A stretch of DNA of 64,000 nucleotides from a virus, in IMG/VR virus record IMGVR_UViG_3300042731_011014, positions 113,891-177,890 of that record. One strand, 5' to 3'. Position 1 is the first letter of the stretch. Each line of letters opens with the position of its first letter. The notes beneath the pieces are model-generated. The model did no database searches. It saw only the letters and a list, made by a program, of their open reading frames with translations, and had not been told where the DNA came from. The position numbers and the translations under genes are program-made. Positions 14,568 to 40,085 of this stretch are shown here, piece after piece.

Positions 14568-15050
14568 TTAGCTAACCACCTCAAGCTCAAAATATTCCAT
14601 TGATAAATCAAGCTCTTGGATGTTAATATCAGATGCCGTTGCATCCATATCGCCGGCAATTTTACATCTAATAGGCTGCGCCTCAAAGATGTTATACTTT
14701 TTTGCGATTGCAGTCCCATCGGGATCAATCGGTGTACCCGCATCACGGTGATAATGTCTAATTTCTATAGTTTGACGATACTGTTCGCCATTAATTGACA
14801 TCATGACCCAGTCCCAAAAATTGGTATCTGCACGAGTTGTTCCTCTCGACAAAGTAATGTCAGAGAAGGTTGGATTGCCAGCATATTTTCGTGTATATGT
14901 CCAGAGTCCTTCCTTGTACTCGCCTTGTTCAATGGACACCTCAGGTGTAGTTACTGCTGAAAAACCAGCACCAACTTCAAGGTAGTTATCCTCAGTGACC
15001 ACATGATATTTGGCTGATCCAAGAAAATCATCCGCTGTTGCTCTACCCAT
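14568..15050 (-). CDS. Major tail tube protein (T4 gp19-like)
   Basis: AGFSAVTTPEVSIEQGEYKEG....RKYAG...FSDITLSRG, FWDW, Y.I.EAQPIR.K..GDMDATASDINIQEL.L..E. Confidence 0.92.
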   Translation of the reverse strand: MGRATADDFLGSAKYHVVTEDNYLEVGAGFSAVTTPEVSIEQGEYKEGLWTYTRKYAGNPTFSDITLSRGTTRADTNFWDWVMMSINGEQYRQTIEIRHYHRDAGTPIDPDGTAIAKKYNIFEAQPIRCKIAGDMDATASDINIQELDLSMEYFELEVVS

Positions 15051-15143: not shown

Positions 15144-17663
15144 TTAGCCAGCAGAAGCAGTTTTTTGCTGAAATCTAATCCTAACAAACTCGCTTGGTTT
15201 CTCAGGTGCGATGTAAACATCAATAACTATGAATCCAGCATCAATACTGCCTTGTGGATTATTGCTTGTGTCAACAATTACTGCAAACGCTTCCTCTGGT
15301 GAATTTCCGGCAAAATAACCATCGTTGTAAAGATTGTTTAGAAAACCAACAATCTGTGTTTTTATCCTTGCCCAGAGACCAGGACCATTATTTTCAAATA
15401 CAATCCAATGGGTTGCATTGAATACAGATTTTTTGACAAAGATAAAAAGCCTTCTGGCCTGGATATATCTCCATTCACTGTCAAGTGACAATGTTCGAAC
15501 ACCCCAAACTGCCCGTCCGGTAAAACTTGAGTCCATAAACGGATTAATCCTGGTACTATAAAGAACGTCTCTTTCTCCTTTAGATAGAAGTCGTTCAATA
15601 CCAATGCAATAATTTAGCTTACCATCCTCAATACCACCTGGGGCCTTTCCTACGTTCCGATTTGAATCAGTTCGGGCATAAACACCAGCAACATGCCCAA
15701 CAGGAGGCAATAGCATTGGGCGACCCTCATTTAAGGGATCGGCGATCTGAAGATGCGGATAATACAGCGCACAGTAACTTGTGTTTTTATTTAGCGTTTG
15801 ACGATTCCATTTTGCTGCATCAGTTGGAGTATAGTTCATTGGAACCGCAGCAAGAACAAAACAATCATCCCTGTTCTCTGCGTAACCAATTTGATCATCT
15901 AGTGATGTTGGATCGCTACAAAAATCAGGAATAGAAATCTGCATAGGTTCCTCAATCTTATCAAAGGCATATATACCTTCAAGATCAGCTGCCAATGCAG
16001 GGGCAGTTACATCATTTCGAGTAATCGCCGCAGATCCATCAGCTCCACCGGAAAGTTCACAATAAGCTGTTCCAGTGGGTTCCAGAATATAAGTAACCTG
16101 AATATTGGTGTCTGCCGATGGCTCACTACCACCGTTAAAAATAACCGTACAGGCACCGGTCGTATAATTAACCACTGAGCCACTAGCTAGATTGGTACCA
16201 GAAATTACTCCGGTTCCATCACCCTGATCAGCGTCACCGCCCTCAGAAGCCCCGCCGTCAACATGAACAGTACAAGATCCGGGAAGAATTGACCATCCTG
16301 TTGGGACAACAAGATCTGCCGTAAAAGTGTCAGCCGATCCGGTTCCGTAACCAATCGAATACAGTGACTTGCTAACTGGTTTCAAGGAAGGTGGTACGTC
16401 AGGGCCATCAGCGCCAACAGTTAGATCGACACGTGTCGAAAGAGCATTGATAACGTTTGGTGCGTACCTTGCGCTATCTACATCACTAAAACTTAGTTCG
16501 AGATATTGTTCCTCAATCTGATACACATCATCATCATCTTTTTCATACACATAATAATCGAATTTTGTATAGGCGCCGGTTACAGCACTTTTATAATCCT
16601 CATTGAGTCTAATTTCGCCTTTAACCCCATTTCCCCATGCACCTTTGGATATTGCATCAACATCCCAATATGCACCGGCTGCGACACCATTATAAGTGTG
16701 TGGGTAGCTTCCTTCGGCAAGACCTAGTAGTAAATTGGAGCAATCATTTTCACTTGGCGCACTAAACTCAACTTCTGATAATACTCCAGTTGTTGGGGAC
16801 GTAAAAACCAGTCGGTTATCATCATCTTTTGCGACAATATCTTGCGTGTTTGAAGTATAAGTATGAGGATATGCACCTTCATCAAGACCAAGTAAAAGAT
16901 TGGTGCAATCATTTGCTGATGGTGCGGCAAACTCAATCTCTGTACCGGCCTTAAATAGTAACTTGGTGCCTTGAACAAAACACACCGTTGAACCAACGGC
17001 CGTGTTAATATTGGCAGCAATTACAGTTAACGCATAAGATCCACCTACACCACTATCACCGGTAACATCAATATCCGCAGCTCCACCGTCATCAATATCT
17101 AAATTGATATTAAAGTGTGTACCATCTAATGTGAGAATAGGATCAGTAATCGCTGCACCAAGAAATCGTGCTTTTTGCCAATCGTTATTAATATTGGTCA
17201 CAATTGCAGATAATGCATAAGATCCACCAACACCTTCGTCATTAGTAACATCAATCTCTTTTGCTTCGCCACCATCAATTGCAACATTGATATTATAATG
17301 TGTACCATCTAACGCCGTCGCTGGATCAGGTAAAACTCTCCCGGTTGACTCAGCCGCTGATGCAGACGAATTATGAGCACATGCAGCCGCGGCCGCATCA
17401 CTCGGAGTTACCCTAACCATATAAAGACGCTGGCCTCCATTTGCAAAAAAAGCTGTTACAGCAAAAGAAATATATGATTTTTTCCAATGTTCTCCAAAAG
17501 TTCGGAAATACTGTTCCAAACTTGTTATTAATGTAGCTTCATGCTCGGGACCGCGAGGCGTAAACCCCATGGTCGCCATTGTTGAAGTCGAAACAGCAGC
17601 AATGGCCCCAGCACCGGCTTTCCTCTCTTCGATATAAATTCCGGGACTTAGATAACTGGGCAT
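15144..17663 (-). CDS. Tail sheath protein with large insertion domains
   Basis: Likely start MPSYLSPGIYIEE at 17663 (GGAGG RBS). GFTPRGP, FFANGGQRLYMVRV; C-terminal LLPPVGHVAGVYARTD, RINP, VWGVRTL, WRYIQARRLF, VFENN, APEKPSEFVRIRF. Confidence 0.95.
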   Translation of the reverse strand: MPSYLSPGIYIEERKAGAGAIAAVSTSTMATMGFTPRGPEHEATLITSLEQYFRTFGEHWKKSYISFAVTAFFANGGQRLYMVRVTPSDAAAAACAHNSSASAAESTGRVLPDPATALDGTHYNINVAIDGGEAKEIDVTNDEGVGGSYALSAIVTNINNDWQKARFLGAAITDPILTLDGTHFNINLDIDDGGAADIDVTGDSGVGGSYALTVIAANINTAVGSTVCFVQGTKLLFKAGTEIEFAAPSANDCTNLLLGLDEGAYPHTYTSNTQDIVAKDDDNRLVFTSPTTGVLSEVEFSAPSENDCSNLLLGLAEGSYPHTYNGVAAGAYWDVDAISKGAWGNGVKGEIRLNEDYKSAVTGAYTKFDYYVYEKDDDDVYQIEEQYLELSFSDVDSARYAPNVINALSTRVDLTVGADGPDVPPSLKPVSKSLYSIGYGTGSADTFTADLVVPTGWSILPGSCTVHVDGGASEGGDADQGDGTGVISGTNLASGSVVNYTTGACTVIFNGGSEPSADTNIQVTYILEPTGTAYCELSGGADGSAAITRNDVTAPALAADLEGIYAFDKIEEPMQISIPDFCSDPTSLDDQIGYAENRDDCFVLAAVPMNYTPTDAAKWNRQTLNKNTSYCALYYPHLQIADPLNEGRPMLLPPVGHVAGVYARTDSNRNVGKAPGGIEDGKLNYCIGIERLLSKGERDVLYSTRINPFMDSSFTGRAVWGVRTLSLDSEWRYIQARRLFIFVKKSVFNATHWIVFENNGPGLWARIKTQIVGFLNNLYNDGYFAGNSPEEAFAVIVDTSNNPQGSIDAGFIVIDVYIAPEKPSEFVRIRFQQKTASAG

Positions 17664-17721
17664 TTTAACCTCCAAAAAAAACCTTACGGTATTTGTTCAT
17701 TTTTAATGCTTATTAAGCTTT

Positions 17722-18252
17722 TTATATCTCTTCATCATTGTTACTAGTCCAATCAATTTCACCTTTGAAATATGAACTATGTTTATCCTCTTCAACTTCT
17801 TCATCTAAGTCCAATTCGTTTATTGTGCTCTCTTCTTTAATGGGTTCGCTTTTTTCTACATTATCCATTTTCTCTTCAATAATCTCTTGCTCATCTACTA
17901 AATCTTTTGTTTGCGTTTCTTTTTGTTTTTCTTCCTCTAGTTGATCGTCTTTGACTGTGATTTCCTCGACATTTTCATTAGTCTCGGGATCACTAACTTC
18001 CCTTATATTATTAACCGGCTGAATGTTTTGTTCAACCTCTTTTTTCTTTTTATTTTCTATACTTACTTCTATCTGCTCTTCTAAATAGATTTCTTTTATC
18101 CATTTACTTCTAAGATACCTGCTAATATCAGGAGAATTAACATTAATACCCTCAACCATAAAAGTAGAAAATCTCGGTACTAATATTGAAGGACCCTCAA
18201 TAAGATTAATCGGTAATGGCCCACTGAAAATGTTTCTGTATGCTTTTTTCAT
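17722..18252 (-). CDS. Hypothetical protein with acidic low-complexity C-terminus
   Basis: Co-oriented ORF directly upstream of the sheath. Confidence 0.6.
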   Translation of the reverse strand: MKKAYRNIFSGPLPINLIEGPSILVPRFSTFMVEGINVNSPDISRYLRSKWIKEIYLEEQIEVSIENKKKKEVEQNIQPVNNIREVSDPETNENVEEITVKDDQLEEEKQKETQTKDLVDEQEIIEEKMDNVEKSEPIKEESTINELDLDEEVEEDKHSSYFKGEIDWTSNNDEEI

Positions 18253-18330
18253 AAAAAAACCCCTTTACTTTGTCCACGCGGCGGAAACCCCTGATTTCAA
18301 TCAGGAGAGGAGCCACCTAACGATTGAACA

Positions 18331-18464
18331 CTATGCATACGAATAACCGTCTATCCGTTGCAATATTTAAAAGCGATACCTTTCTTTAGCAATTCCCTTA
18401 CACGTGCCGGATGGCAGGGCATTAACGGCATTTTGTTTTTGTCTAAAACAAGAGCTTTTAACAT
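18331..18464 (-). pseudogene. iscB: iscB remnant (N-terminal PLMP fused to extreme C-terminus)
   Basis: MLKALVLDKNKMPLMPCHPARVRELLKKG|IAFKYC, then in a shifted frame LQRIDGYSYA*. Confidence 0.88.
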
Positions 18465-18701
18465 TGGGAGTTACCTCCCAATTCTCTGCTTTCGCAGGTA
18501 AAGGTCACCTCGGCAAAGTTAATGCACGGTTTTATATGCAAACAGCACTGGCTTAACCCCTTAGACCTGGTGAAGCATTCCAAAGTGCCTATATATTTGC
18601 GCTTAACGTAGCTCAAGAAGTATTGCTCCTTTGCTTAGCCTGGTCAACATAAGGCCTGTTATTTTTCACAAACCTCCGACTTAAAGTCGAGGGCAGTTGA
18701 C
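18465..18701 (-). ncRNA. omega-RNA (HEARO-like) scaffold of IscB
   Basis: GTCAAC...GTTGACCAGGCTAAG...GAGCTACGTT...TGCTTCACCAG...ACTTTGCCGAGG landmarks directly upstream of the PLMP start codon. Confidence 0.8.
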
Positions 18702-18703
18702 AT

Positions 18704-19441
18704 CTATTCCTTTTGGTGCATATTGTGTTTACCTTCTTTAACTGCCTTATAGACAACCGGATCATTCAAATCTATTTGCCCCTCAACTCTAATAGTTACC
18801 GACCATACAGCTAATCGATTACCTATTTCAGCAAATTCGCTAATATCTGAAAATCCTTCAAGATAAACATCGTATGTTCTGTCCTCATCAAGGCTATCTT
18901 TCACGTTAACCAACGAATATGGCTGATAAGTTCTTAGGACCTTCTTTAAAATAGCCTGCGTAACTCTCCTGTATTTGGATCGAATAATTATGGTGTAGTT
19001 AATATCATAGGGCCATGCCATAACTTTAGTTTCGTAAGAATCATATCCATTAAGGGTTGTCCCGTCAGGCTTTGTAATCACAACCGGATTTGCACCATCA
19101 GCAGGTCTTTTATACTGCAAACCAAGGGAAGGCCATCTTCCAAGTGCCAAAACCGGCTCACCATTTCTTTGGACCTCAATTGAAGGTAAAACGTGATTTT
19201 CAACTGTCGCCTTCGGATTGGTAAAAGTTATCGGGATACCTGGAGCAGTAGTGCCTGTACTATCAACAGGTAAATCTGATGAACCTAGCCCGGCTATATC
19301 GCCTAATGGAATTATGTAATTTTGCTGATTATTACCGTCCTGGGACCATCCAAGCAACTGTCCTCCCATAGTAGTAATTACACCCGTATCAAAATCCCTA
19401 ACCCAAACATCACCAGTTTTTTGATCACCAACTAATGGCAT
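18704..19441 (-). CDS. Tail terminator / completion protein (gp15-like)
   Basis: IPITF.NP, LPSIEVQR, AWPYDINYTI.IRSKYR..TQ.IL, ...WSVTIRVEG pattern; upstream of sheath. Confidence 0.7.
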   Translation of the reverse strand: MPLVGDQKTGDVWVRDFDTGVITTMGGQLLGWSQDGNNQQNYIIPLGDIAGLGSSDLPVDSTGTTAPGIPITFTNPKATVENHVLPSIEVQRNGEPVLALGRWPSLGLQYKRPADGANPVVITKPDGTTLNGYDSYETKVMAWPYDINYTIIIRSKYRRVTQAILKKVLRTYQPYSLVNVKDSLDEDRTYDVYLEGFSDISEFAEIGNRLAVWSVTIRVEGQIDLNDPVVYKAVKEGKHNMHQKE

Positions 19442-37300: not shown

Positions 37301-40085
37301 TAAAGAATGACAACAAATAACTGTCTCCACTATTTATTTCTTTACCATTTATTATAGATTTTTTATCTCTCGGCTTACGCGGTCTAATGTTCCCAGATAT
37401 CCATCCTAATCCATCTATAACTGTTTTAATATCAGCTAAAAGATTTTTATTGCAAAGCTCAGTGTGATTATATTCTCCTTTTTTGGTTATCCACCCGTCG
37501 GCCTCCATAAATCCATCTATCATCGCTGTTCTGATACTTTTTGGAGCATTATAAACCCAATATGGCACTCTTTTGTTTCTTGCCCTATTAATCCACCCTA
37601 TTTTAATCATTAGATCAGATAATCTTTTTGAACTGACATTAATCGTCCTGCTTATTCCATCATCTCCTCTGCTGACTTCTCTGACATTTAAACCAATACT
37701 TCTTAAGTAATTTTCATAAAATATATTTCTTTCTTCATATACTCCAAGGTGTATAATTATACACCCGTTTTCAATTGCACCATTACCAAGCATATACCCC
37801 CAAAACTTGGCAAATCTATGATCTATAAAATCTGGCAAAATCAATGAATCATATTTTTTCTGCTCAATAGAGTCATAAGTAAATGGTACTCTAATGGAAC
37901 TAAACAATTTTTTTGCACTATCAAATGACAAAGAACTTTTACCATCTAATAATTCATCAAGCTTTCCTTTAGTTATCCCAATATCTTCGGCAAATCTTTT
38001 CAATCCATCAAATTTACTGGAATATTTACTTATTTTTGCACAAGTTTTAAGCGAGTTAATTCCACGTTTACTTAAAACAAATTCAGATTTAGAATTAAAC
38101 TCATCTAATAAAAGGCCAAGTGGAATATTATTCTTTGTTTCTGGGCAATTACTAACGCACATTATTTTATCATTAGGAGACAAATCTTTAACCTGAACCC
38201 ACGTATTTCTCCCTGGCTTTTTATCAACTAAAACAGGATGTTCGCCAGTTAATATTATTTCTCTATGTGCTGTTTTTAACTTAAAGGTTTGCTTTTCCCC
38301 ACTACAAACATGATTCAGTACTTTAGTTTGTCTAAGTAACCCTGCGTGTCTAGTAAAAACACTATCGCCTGGTTTAATATCCTTAATGAACTTCACACCA
38401 TCTGGGGTCCAAACCCTTGATTCACCTGATAAACAATACCCGTACTTACTCTTTCTCATTTTTGATCTAAGACGGAAATGAGCAATCTTCCATGGCTCAT
38501 ATAAAATGGTATTACCATCCTGGGATGCCATTGCACCGTTTGGCATTTCAATGCCAAAAACAGATTTATCAATTTTAAAGTCACCTGAATAAGATTGTGC
38601 AAACCCCAATATTGCACCGGTCCCAGTTTCAAACCTCCTAATCGTAGCTGATGGAAGGAAATTTAATCCCTGAACACCATCATCGTTAACCAGTATCTCT
38701 TCATAATCACTGCCATATTTGCAAACTGTTCTAGATATCTCCCAAATATTGTCTTCAGCTCTTATTTTGTTGTCATACATATCGGTAAGATCTGTTTGAA
38801 CATTATCATCCTCGCATTCAACCCACATAGATCGGTTTTTTTCACCATCAGTTTGTGTTGAATCGTCTGCATATATATCGAGAGCCGAATTGTGAACAAC
38901 TACTCCATTGCAAACAAAATTATGATATTTTGGGACTTCAATATCATACACATCGTAAGATTCGCTAATTCTTATAACATTAACCACTCGATGATTTCCA
39001 ACATCAGAGATGAGATCGAATTCTTCTAGCCTGCGTTTCAGTACGCCAAAAGATACGCCTAGCTTTTTTGCTGCCTCAGTTATACTACTTGATGACATAT
39101 AAGCAGCTTCAACCTCTTCCCTGCTAAGCTTTATTTTATGCCCTTCAGCTATCTTGCGCTTGTGCTCTTCTGATAGTTTTTTGTCTGTTAACGGCACTCT
39201 CTGCTTTTTATCTGTTTTCCTTTGATTTGGATGTTTTGTTCCAAGCATTTTTCTAGAGCGCTCTTTGCGCAATTCATCTGTCCATTCTGGAAAATACTTA
39301 GTTGTATCGTGACTTTCGAAATTATGCTTTCTGGCATGAGAATTATGGGTTTCTAGACTAAGGTTGTCCAAACTATTATTTAAAGGGTTGTTGTCTTTGT
39401 GGTGGACAACCTCCCCTTTTTTTCTTTCCAAAAGCTCATTAGCGACCAATTTATGAATCCAAGTCCACCTTTTCCCGTCACTTTCTCTTATTGATTCTGG
39501 TGATGGTTGGTGGACTTGCCAATATTCGTTTTTACTCTTAGGAGTTAATTTTCTAGTTCTAAGTGCCCCTGGCATTAATCGTGTACCAGGTTTTAGTTCG
39601 CCAGCTTTTTTCCAAACATTAATTTTGGTTAAAAACAAATGATCATCAGTACATGTAATGCTTTCGCCATTATCAAATAAAACTTTGACCATTTGTTTTG
39701 GATGACCTGCCTTGCCTGTTATACGTGCATTTTTTGCTTTTGCAGGTAATAGAGATCTTCTTAACCTGTTATAAGAAAGAACATGAAACTCTCCTCCTCT
39801 CTCTGCAAGTTTTTTAACTTCAATCCAACCATCTTCTATTGTAAAAATCTTACAACATCCCGTAATACAAGAAAGATCTGGGTAGTCATCCATATTTTCA
39901 TAATCGACATAGCGACTCATAAGATCATGATCTAATTGCAAATAATCGGCTACTGAGTCAAATCCGAACTGCATAAACAGGTTGAAATCTTTTTCGCCAG
40001 CCTGAGGAAGATCGGACCGAGAAACCTCATTTTCTCTTTTGAAAATATTTCTTACATATCCAGCAATTTTATCACTTATTGACAT
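34365..40085 (-). CDS. Portal protein (T4 gp20-like) containing four inteins; spliced product about 563 aa
   Basis: Exteins join to YPDLS-SALDIYADD, YGY-SVLEPARWIWKRL.LLEDAMLVYR..RAP.R..FYVD.G, YNPL-SQDEDFWIP.R, TL-SQEDVRFAR. Confidence 0.95.
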   Translation of the reverse strand: MSISDKIAGYVRNIFKRENEVSRSDLPQAGEKDFNLFMQFGFDSVADYLQLDHDLMSRYVDYENMDDYPDLSCITGCCKIFTIEDGWIEVKKLAERGGEFHVLSYNRLRRSLLPAKAKNARITGKAGHPKQMVKVLFDNGESITCTDDHLFLTKINVWKKAGELKPGTRLMPGALRTRKLTPKSKNEYWQVHQPSPESIRESDGKRWTWIHKLVANELLERKKGEVVHHKDNNPLNNSLDNLSLETHNSHARKHNFESHDTTKYFPEWTDELRKERSRKMLGTKHPNQRKTDKKQRVPLTDKKLSEEHKRKIAEGHKIKLSREEVEAAYMSSSSITEAAKKLGVSFGVLKRRLEEFDLISDVGNHRVVNVIRISESYDVYDIEVPKYHNFVCNGVVVHNSALDIYADDSTQTDGEKNRSMWVECEDDNVQTDLTDMYDNKIRAEDNIWEISRTVCKYGSDYEEILVNDDGVQGLNFLPSATIRRFETGTGAILGFAQSYSGDFKIDKSVFGIEMPNGAMASQDGNTILYEPWKIAHFRLRSKMRKSKYGYCLSGESRVWTPDGVKFIKDIKPGDSVFTRHAGLLRQTKVLNHVCSGEKQTFKLKTAHREIILTGEHPVLVDKKPGRNTWVQVKDLSPNDKIMCVSNCPETKNNIPLGLLLDEFNSKSEFVLSKRGINSLKTCAKISKYSSKFDGLKRFAEDIGITKGKLDELLDGKSSLSFDSAKKLFSSIRVPFTYDSIEQKKYDSLILPDFIDHRFAKFWGYMLGNGAIENGCIIIHLGVYEERNIFYENYLRSIGLNVREVSRGDDGISRTINVSSKRLSDLMIKIGWINRARNKRVPYWVYNAPKSIRTAMIDGFMEADGWITKKGEYNHTELCNKNLLADIKTVIDGLGWISGNIRPRKPRDKKSIINGKEINSGDSYLLSFFRENISDNDFFSEKIVSKEPSIIEKVYDIEVADDGHCFVSDGIVVHNSVLEPARWIWKRLVLLEDAMLVYRLTRAPTRFAFYVDTGDMDADEATAHVRQMRNEFKKRKFVNSDGTLNMKYNPLCLTGDTKIALLDGRDIPIVNLVGEFNRGKENWVYSVDRSDSGKIVPGKIVWAGKTRKMAQLVEVTLDNGETIRTTPDHKFIKRDGKYCEARYLKSGDSLMPYKTLISSKDKGYSIDGYEMVYDPKTKKYIYTHRMVRDELKQNGVTHHENFIKTDNSPDNLSFMKKSEHSIIHRDNGHNIGHIMSQIRLSDPVLDKKLKKVSSANISAWNKIEKYIIAYNNSCKHEQDNVKRSENKKKFWENEENRVAFSEKRKIKFSDDFFVGVQSYVANNLNVSAEDVVNYVNNSRLIDLFKQENLSKKVHRHLMLKMYREKGFDNFKSFKKWASSNNHKVVSVKYIEQCEDTYTLTVEKYHNFALTAGIFIKNSQDEDFWIPTRSGKDSTRIDMLQGSMYQGIDDVDYFRMKLYAAIKVPRAYLGYEETISRATLCLAGNTMIPLLDGTSETIENLSKRSKPFWVYSCNDDGHIVPGLAKNARLTKKKTRTVEVVLDNGEILTCTPDHPIMMRDGSYREAIDLKPEDSLMPLYRRNASGIGRAQKLKDYEQVYSPGADANIEHLIEVAKSYRCKSKKELIKWSGYSECLLNRIFSENGIKYADFAHEYMLKYMSRSTATAIKKGRNHKVVEVREGPVIDTYDMTVDGYHNFATECGVFVHNSQEDVRFARTILRVQRVLKTGFHQIGRVHLAAKGLDPSSVNFNVMMTVPSAVFEMAQMEVRNQRAQLADSMQQWVSQRWIMENIFGMTNSEIEDILDHRVEDAIRMASIEGRQDKIRSKISMSGQLPAEKPAENVPQEDLQVVKKQLRRRFERRLTSGRDKNVSKDQVLNIINSNKELNKGVRELRILMREIKEAISYKKVA
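34974..35651 (-). mobile_element. Portal intein 4 (226 aa, endonuclease largely deleted)
   Basis: CLAGNTMI, CTPDHPIM, no HNH or LAGLIDADG core, ends TYDMTVDGYHNFATECGVFVHN|S. Confidence 0.93.
35838..36935 (-). mobile_element. Portal intein 3 (366 aa, HNH-type; ends Lys-Asn)
   Basis: CLTGDTKI, TTPDHKF, YTHRMV...THHENFIKTDNSPDNL, ends TYTLTVEKYHNFALTAGIFIKN|S. Confidence 0.93.
37164..38435 (-). mobile_element. Portal intein 2 (424 aa, LAGLIDADG homing endonuclease)
   Basis: CLSGESRV, LTGEHPVL, FWGYMLGNG and MIDGFMEADG motifs, ends VYDIEV...HCFVSDGIVVHN|S. Confidence 0.95.
38889..39869 (-). mobile_element. Portal intein 1 (327 aa, HNH-type homing endonuclease)
   Basis: Starts C (CITG), block B CTDDHLF, WIHKLV...VVHHKDNNPLNNSLDNL, ends VYDIEVPKYHNFVCNGVVVHN|S. 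Confidence 0.93.

Follow-up and report, generated by a model that had tools for sequence, protein, structure and literature searches.

A nuclease-less, internally deleted IscB-type IS200/IS605 element at a late gene junction of a distant T4-like phage

Introduction

What separates two late genes of a phage by several hundred nucleotides when the same genes are nearly adjacent in its kin? The question is raised by a junction in a 177,890-bp IMG/VR virus record (IMGVR_UViG_3300042731_011014), rated as complete by CheckV. Bases 113891-177890 of this record were examined; this whole stretch of 64,000 nt is called the window, and positions refer to it unless genome coordinates, those of the full record, are stated. 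The phage is a distant T4-like myovirus of ~178 kb, whose sheath protein shares no more than 35% identity with its counterpart in any cultured phage. A preliminary description made from the sequence letters had read the insertion as a hidden miniature IscB transposon that deleted its nuclease and kept its omega-RNA.

The termini of ISC-group transposons are 5'-GTCA, and the target is N|ATGA (Kapitonov, Makarova, Koonin 2016, PMC4810608). The guide of IscB is the 5' flank outside the transposon, which requires read-in transcription, and the TAM of GstIscB was measured as TTCAT (Meers et al. 2023, bioRxiv 10.1101/2023.03.14.532601). Palindrome-associated transposable elements (PATEs) with omega-RNAs, and the idea that these are served in trans, were already described in the same work.

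Results

The insertion lies between the gene for a gp15-like tail sheath stabiliser/terminator of 245 aa (18704-19441, minus strand) and a gene for 176 aa (17722-18252, minus strand), both taken from the list of open reading frames. The former has a weak Pfam T4-gp15_tss match (E 6e-4, under the cut-off) and relatives in the same gene order (P0002 and P0003). The Pfam matches and the list of open reading frames also place a tail sheath gene (15144-17675) and a gp19-type tube gene (14568-15050) on the minus strand. The gp15-like proteins of two related lineages, L008 and L010, are 58-61% identical and the gene order is kept, with a homologue of the 176-aa gene directly after the gp15-like gene. 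The gap between these genes is 14 nt in L008, 2 nt in L010 and 451 nt here. [quoted passage not shown]

The minus-strand segment 18253-18701 is an internally deleted, nuclease-less, non-autonomous IscB-type IS200/IS605 element of 449 bp. All its features are on the minus strand, co-oriented with the late operon. Its first bases, GTCAAC, begin at 18701, 2 nt beyond the TAG stop codon of the gp15-like gene (18704-18706), exactly where the preliminary description had placed it. Both IS200/IS605-type end hairpins that had been claimed are present. On the omega-RNA side there is a subterminal hairpin at 18673-18693 (minus strand) and, beyond it in transposase orientation, a stretch of 8 nt with TGAC as its last bases; the same hairpin and end architecture were found in two full elements (L012 and L013) and in copies from a Nitrospiraceae genome. 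The hairpin of the other end (LE in transposase orientation; 18288-18307, minus strand) has one mismatch, and homologous hairpins occur in 41 family members. Imperfect subterminal hairpins at both ends together with the lack of terminal inverted repeats are traits of the ISC group, and no target-site duplication flanks the element. A 5'-GTCA terminus and insertion directly 5' of ATGA are shared by this copy, a second copy in the same genome and their relatives, on a boundary deduced by comparison, with no empty sibling seen.

The coding remnant of the element is an open reading frame of 37 codons (18351-18464, minus strand). It begins as a PLMP-type IscB N-terminus. Its Pfam RRXRR match, at 29 bits, passes the cut-off, and over 31 residues it shares 81% identity with two full-length IscBs (P0004 and P0005, of 422 and 428 aa). 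At ~18378|18377 the 29 N-terminal residues are joined to ...IAFKYC, a motif (KYC) that sits ~12 residues from the C-terminus in full IscB. A second, small and out-of-frame deletion is found at ~18360|18359, after which the last ten iscB codons continue in a shifted frame (18331-18359, minus strand) to the original stop codon at 18331-18333, as judged by comparison with the C-termini of P0004 and P0005; this stretch is also kept in the second copy. The junction of a PLMP N-terminus to an IscB C-terminus, noticed in the letters alone, is confirmed by the RRXRR match and the identity to the two full-length proteins. An intact IscB, with PLMP, RuvC, bridge helix and HNH, is absent, and 29 N-terminal and ~16 C-terminal residues are left.

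Profile and sequence searches detected no IscB beyond the 37-codon remnant in the whole phage record, and no Y1 transposase (PF01797) was found at E <= 1 in the 177,890 bp. Another type of element is present at genome ~18.1-19.8 kb (L087 1441-3112), namely an apparently intact IS607-type element in which the gene for a 188-aa serine recombinase overlaps that for a 393-aa TnpB with a Cas12f1-like_TNB domain (E 7e-19). Because this pair is apparently intact, the other OMEGA family (TnpB) is apparently represented in the phage by a live RNA-guided nuclease.

Between the iscB remnant and the gp15-like gene lies the omega-RNA scaffold (18465-18701, minus strand), which forms the transposon end nearest the guide. 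It comprises a match to the Rfam HEARO model (RF02033) at 18498-18701, followed by an SD-containing hairpin ahead of iscB. A covariance-model search had been suggested as a check on the omega-RNA; run with cmscan, it returned the whole model (1-211) on the minus strand with 65.7 bits and E 6.5e-13, below the HEARO gathering score of 83 bits. The match surfaced only under an E-value threshold, and the Rfam scan of the whole window at gathering thresholds found nothing. From its end at 18498, the ATG of the remnant iscB (18464) is 33 nt further on the same strand. Alignment with the second copy and the cmscan alignments locate the junction of a 30-nt deletion inside the omega-RNA, at ~18569/18570 (18564-18575, minus strand). 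The deletion lies between 3-nt repeats and has cost one hairpin its 3' arm and the following hairpin its 5' arm. Two helices are thereby broken, and it is this loss of parts of two helices that puts the copy under the cut-off. The scaffold is a damaged HEARO member: the omega-RNA is kept in that a full-length match is present, but it is not intact. Compared with shuffled sequences, the region folds somewhat better (z = -1.98).

Together, the HEARO match, the iscB remnant and the two hairpins bear out the central proposal of a hidden, non-autonomous, nuclease-less IscB/OMEGA element after the stop codon of a tail gene. The term MITE-like fits loosely, for a miniature non-autonomous element; a strict MITE was ruled out, as the element has neither the terminal inverted repeats nor the target-site duplication of a DDE transposon. 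The element is correctly classed as a PATE, with both ends kept, no functional open reading frame and two copies with different flanks, in addition to two end scars.

The second copy (copy 2; the copy in the window is copy 1) has no open reading frame and is located outside the window, at genome 83362-83726 (L004 ~1408-1772). Its HEARO match (genome 83494-83726) reaches 140.5 bits, above the gathering score, with nearly all pairs standard, and its omega-RNA is structurally complete. From copy 2, iscB has been removed by a deletion between two 4-nt repeats, both of which are still visible in copy 1, and neither copy is derived from the other. The copy 1 scaffold is 82-100% identical to that of copy 2. 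A block of 111 nt (18465-18575 and its counterpart in copy 2) is 100% identical and bounded exactly by two indels, and the rest is 82-93% identical. We read this identity as gene conversion between dispersed repeats; purifying selection could also yield it. At copy 2 the upstream gene, encoding a 160-aa membrane protein, reads five codons into the element, and excision would restore a stop codon overlapping the next ATG. For the empty copy 2 site a product of 155 aa is predicted, and no record matched it exactly; homologues of this upstream gene (34-40% identical) were on contigs of at most 1.5 kb only, of no use for the empty site.

The last ~20 nt of copy 1 recur, outside the window, before two other genes. 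At one of these scars (genome 65942-65972; L006) the tip directly adjoins the final 11 nt of the omega-RNA region, to which it is fused, and at the other (genome ~37755-37790) it is joined to the bases ahead of the hairpin. One adjoins a class II ribonucleotide-reductase-like gene and the other a gene for 116 aa. Both alignments to the copy 1 end stand at z ~7 over shuffles, and three of the five genome-wide occurrences of the core 8-mer are at these sites. The idea that the end motif is a general promoter or ribosome-binding site of the phage was discarded, given that it occurs at three sites only and that the usual SD of the phage is AAGGA/AGGAG. At all four loci, the two copies and the two scars, ATGAAAA follows as the start of the next gene. 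The loci form a series of progressively larger deletions, none of which has taken the SD-bearing tip. Decay is visible in copy 1 in the change of CAAG to CAAA, the mismatch in the LE stem, the HEARO score below the cut-off and the two lost helices. The copy 1 element is identical in two other assemblies of the phage (three in all).

The right end of copy 1 was sought by comparison. In IS608-type elements, the four bases ahead of each hairpin pair with the cleavage site. Ahead of the LE hairpin is GAAA, which predicts TCAT and matches copy 1 (the rule was checked on three subfamilies); at the omega-RNA end, CAAG pairs with TGAC in copy 2 and is replaced by the mismatched CAAA in copy 1. The right end would accordingly be at 18253, and the TAM or transposase target the ATGAA at 18252-18248 (minus strand; TTCAT on the plus strand), which is also the start codon of the 176-aa gene. 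In the closest full elements, L012 (with an antisense Y1 TnpA) and L013, 19 nt separate the hairpin from ATGA. A related element is present six times in the Nitrospiraceae genome, and its copies agree as far as ATGAA and diverge beyond it; one of these adjoins the start codon of a CoaD-like gene. Across 41 automatically resolved junctions the pattern is the hairpin, 12-33 nt and ATG[AG], with a mode of 19-20 nt and at most 26 nt in all but L030 (33 nt). Excising 18253-18701 leaves a stop codon, 2 nt and an ATG, as in L010. In the preliminary description the element had ended at 18274, with ACAAA as candidate TAM. Neither is supported: the pairing rule, the six Nitrospiraceae copies, the 41 junctions and the published TTCAT TAM all favour 18253 and ATGAA.

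The terminal linker (18253-18287, minus strand), defined by this boundary argument, measures 35 nt, against 33 nt in copy 2 and 12-26 nt in the relatives surveyed except L030 (33 nt); its length, the weak point of this placement, was either already unusual when the elements moved or increased after insertion. A rival placement has the end nearer the hairpin, either at 18274-18279, where the copies diverge, with the TAM there, or 19 nt after the hairpin with GTAAA as target. The sharp drop of homology between the copies 10 nt after the hairpin is consistent with such an end, as are the modal linker length of 19 nt in relatives and a T-rich spacer with an SD-like motif at the L008 junction. We nevertheless consider it improbable, as neither candidate fits the TCAT predicted from GAAA and relatives with the same GAAA (L012, L013 and L089) adjoin ATGA. 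Moreover, the stretch beyond 18274 travels with the element, because it recurs at two other loci before other genes, and the mere 2 nt from stop codon to ATG in L010 correspond to removal of everything up to 18253. For the boundary 19 nt after the hairpin, a TTAC target was rejected, since it conflicts with the guide tetranucleotide GAAA.

Empty junctions in related phages had been expected to fix the ends and the TAM. Kin with 2-14 nt between the genes do lack the insertion, but a near-identical element-free sibling, from which the ends could be fixed, was not among them. No element-free junction was found in IMG/VR with 0-28 nt allowed, and no relatives of the gp15-like protein were found in that database. 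Searches for the element itself gave similar results: none of 130 family loci held an omega-RNA more than ~78% identical, neither the end hairpin nor a 20-mer of the omega-RNA had an exact match in IMG/VR, metagenome contigs scanned with a 23-mer and a two-block pattern gave none either, and a blastn search with the better copy of the element against 50,697 phage records was equally negative.

The terminal linker contains an SD-like AAAGGGG (18260-18266), 7 nt ahead of the start codon of the 176-aa gene; it differs from the usual SD of the phage given above and recurs at the two scars. This motif probably serves now as the SD of that gene. The association extends to the clade: 27 of the 41 junction ATGs begin a reading frame that reaches 100 codons or more, where the share among control sites is 24%, and SD-like 4-mers at the right distance are carried by 12 of 34 distinct ends in the wider IscB clade, where 4.3 were expected. 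In this clade the ATGA(A) target thus very often coincides with the start codon of a host gene, and an outward SD is present at about one end in three. An insertion at a start codon cuts the gene off from its ribosome-binding site, which an outward SD would repair, and such a repair explains why every scar retains that piece. The combination of start-codon targeting with an outward SD was not found in the literature searched.

At loci L013-L116, from GTDB genomes and IMG/VR, the element adjoins ATG[AG], usually a real start codon (27/41), and the neighbouring starts include CoaD-, TrxB- and LeuD-like N-termini and signal peptides. Two loci from one Proteobacteria MAG, L030 and L033, have GAGA before the hairpin and adjoin AGGA, itself an SD, and not ATGA, as the pairing rule predicts. 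This sub-lineage inserts ahead of ribosome-binding sites.

Discussion

The element belongs to a known class, that of gene-less omega-RNA derivatives, in a new setting. It resembles the IscB-derived, ISGst5-related PATEs of Geobacillus stearothermophilus (Meers et al. 2023) in its subterminal hairpins at both ends, the lack of a functional protein gene, an omega-RNA for which a nuclease would have to be supplied in trans and the TAM TTCAT/ATGAA. Those PATEs reside in a bacterial chromosome, whereas this one is in the genome of a T4-like phage, where the start and end of iscB remain, making the origin by deletion visible, where no transposase or nuclease partner exists in the same genome and where the linker, at 33-35 nt, is unusually long. 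With the ISC/IscB transposons (Kapitonov, Makarova, Koonin 2016) it shares the 5' terminus, the target site, the absence of target duplication and the dependence on Y1 in trans, but here the nuclease gene is cut to 37 codons; that paper does not discuss insertion at start codons or an outward SD. As in HEARO RNA (RF02033), the full model is covered, in the same place relative to the iscB start, and the sister copy exceeds the gathering cut-off, in contrast to copy 1, with 65.7 against 83 bits and a 30-nt deletion in two helices. Altae-Tran and co-workers reportedly described, in 2021, standalone trans-acting omega-RNAs for IscB/IsrB in Ktedonobacter racemifer. These likewise are omega-RNA loci without an adjacent nuclease, but cognate nucleases are found elsewhere in that genome and none is found here.

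We favour, as probably correct, the reading that the copies are immobilised relics eroded by microhomology deletions. The element would have been acquired during replication in a host whose TnpA and IscB elements were active, transposing as single-stranded DNA to a site directly 5' of ATGAA, the start of the 176-aa gene. The insertion would have cut this gene off from its native ribosome-binding site in the end of the upstream gene, and the outward SD in the last 35 nt of the element would have taken over. Microhomology deletions then took away ~375 iscB codons, ~10 nt near the 3' end of the gene and 30 nt of the omega-RNA. Because the phage lacks IscB and a Y1 transposase, copy 1 would now be immobile and its RNA partnerless in cis, read through in the late mRNA and slowly eroded, with only the terminal SD piece under selection. 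A present function of the RNA is probably absent in copy 1. Against this reading, the omega-RNA of copy 2 is complete, and both copies are placed where read-through would supply a guide. Nor is there a sign of ongoing loss at the population level, the element being the same in three assemblies.

An alternative is that the copies are guide cassettes acting in trans, with an omega-RNA produced by read-through, loaded by an IscB of the host or of a co-infecting element and directed against element-free siblings that join guide and ATGAA, which would be cut and thereby converted or eliminated. The guide would be the 16 nt directly 5' of the element (18702-18717, minus strand, placed relative to the HEARO start), which are the last bases of the gp15-like gene, as had been proposed when the 3' end of the tail terminator gene was named as guide. 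The logic of guide and TAM is intact for both copies, with unique phage sequence in the 5' flank and ATGAA opening the 3' flank; the first bases of the element, GTCAA, differ from the TAM at two positions, which would provide self-protection; and both copies are co-oriented with the upstream gene, as the biogenesis of IscB omega-RNAs requires. Copy 2 scores 140.5 bits with nearly all pairs standard, IscB genes are found in 58 IMG/VR viral contigs, and use in trans has been proposed in the literature for omega-RNAs borne by PATEs. We still hold such a role to be unlikely. The phage itself has no IscB, neither the 130 family loci nor the exact-pattern viral and metagenome scans yielded an omega-RNA more than ~78% identical, copy 1 is missing two helices, and a deletion series down to bare scars resembles loss, not maintenance. 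An extension of the same idea, to which we give little credence, is that the orphan omega-RNAs are nuclease-free homing cassettes, transcribed with the late operons of the phage, in which a host IscB cuts the stop/ATGAA junctions of competitor phages and the breaks are repaired from the element-bearing genome. If true, the element would spread among the phages of a population like a homing endonuclease gene without the cost of a nuclease, and its SD end would keep the insertion translationally neutral.

The RNA structure could instead have acquired a cis role in the late mRNA that goes further than supplying an SD. It might uncouple the translation of the tail genes, set the ratio between them, or stabilise or process the transcript. 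The two copies and the two scars all lie exactly between co-directional genes, replacing native translational coupling, and the region folds better than its shuffles. The z-score is weak, however, and expected of any omega-RNA relic; the two host junctions involve unrelated genes, kin phages manage with 2-14 nt at the junction, and the scars show that the structured part is dispensable. A cis role is thus very doubtful, and decay of an immobilised relic remains our preferred reading.

Read as decay, the genome offers a clean natural example of how an IscB element erodes, holding a nuclease remnant, an ORF-less element and two end scars. It also shows that gene junctions in large phage genomes of the lytic type are open to colonisation by IS200/IS605 elements, and the outward SD would explain how the downstream gene survives when such an element sits in a tight operon. 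Should the RNAs prove to work with a host IscB, they would represent a guide-only selfish element in a virus.

The element has a further consequence for assembly. In the Logan short-read contigs of the phage, L086 and L147, the assembly stops within the omega-RNA of each copy, as expected for a repeat, and such repeats may cause phage contigs to be dropped or fragmented.
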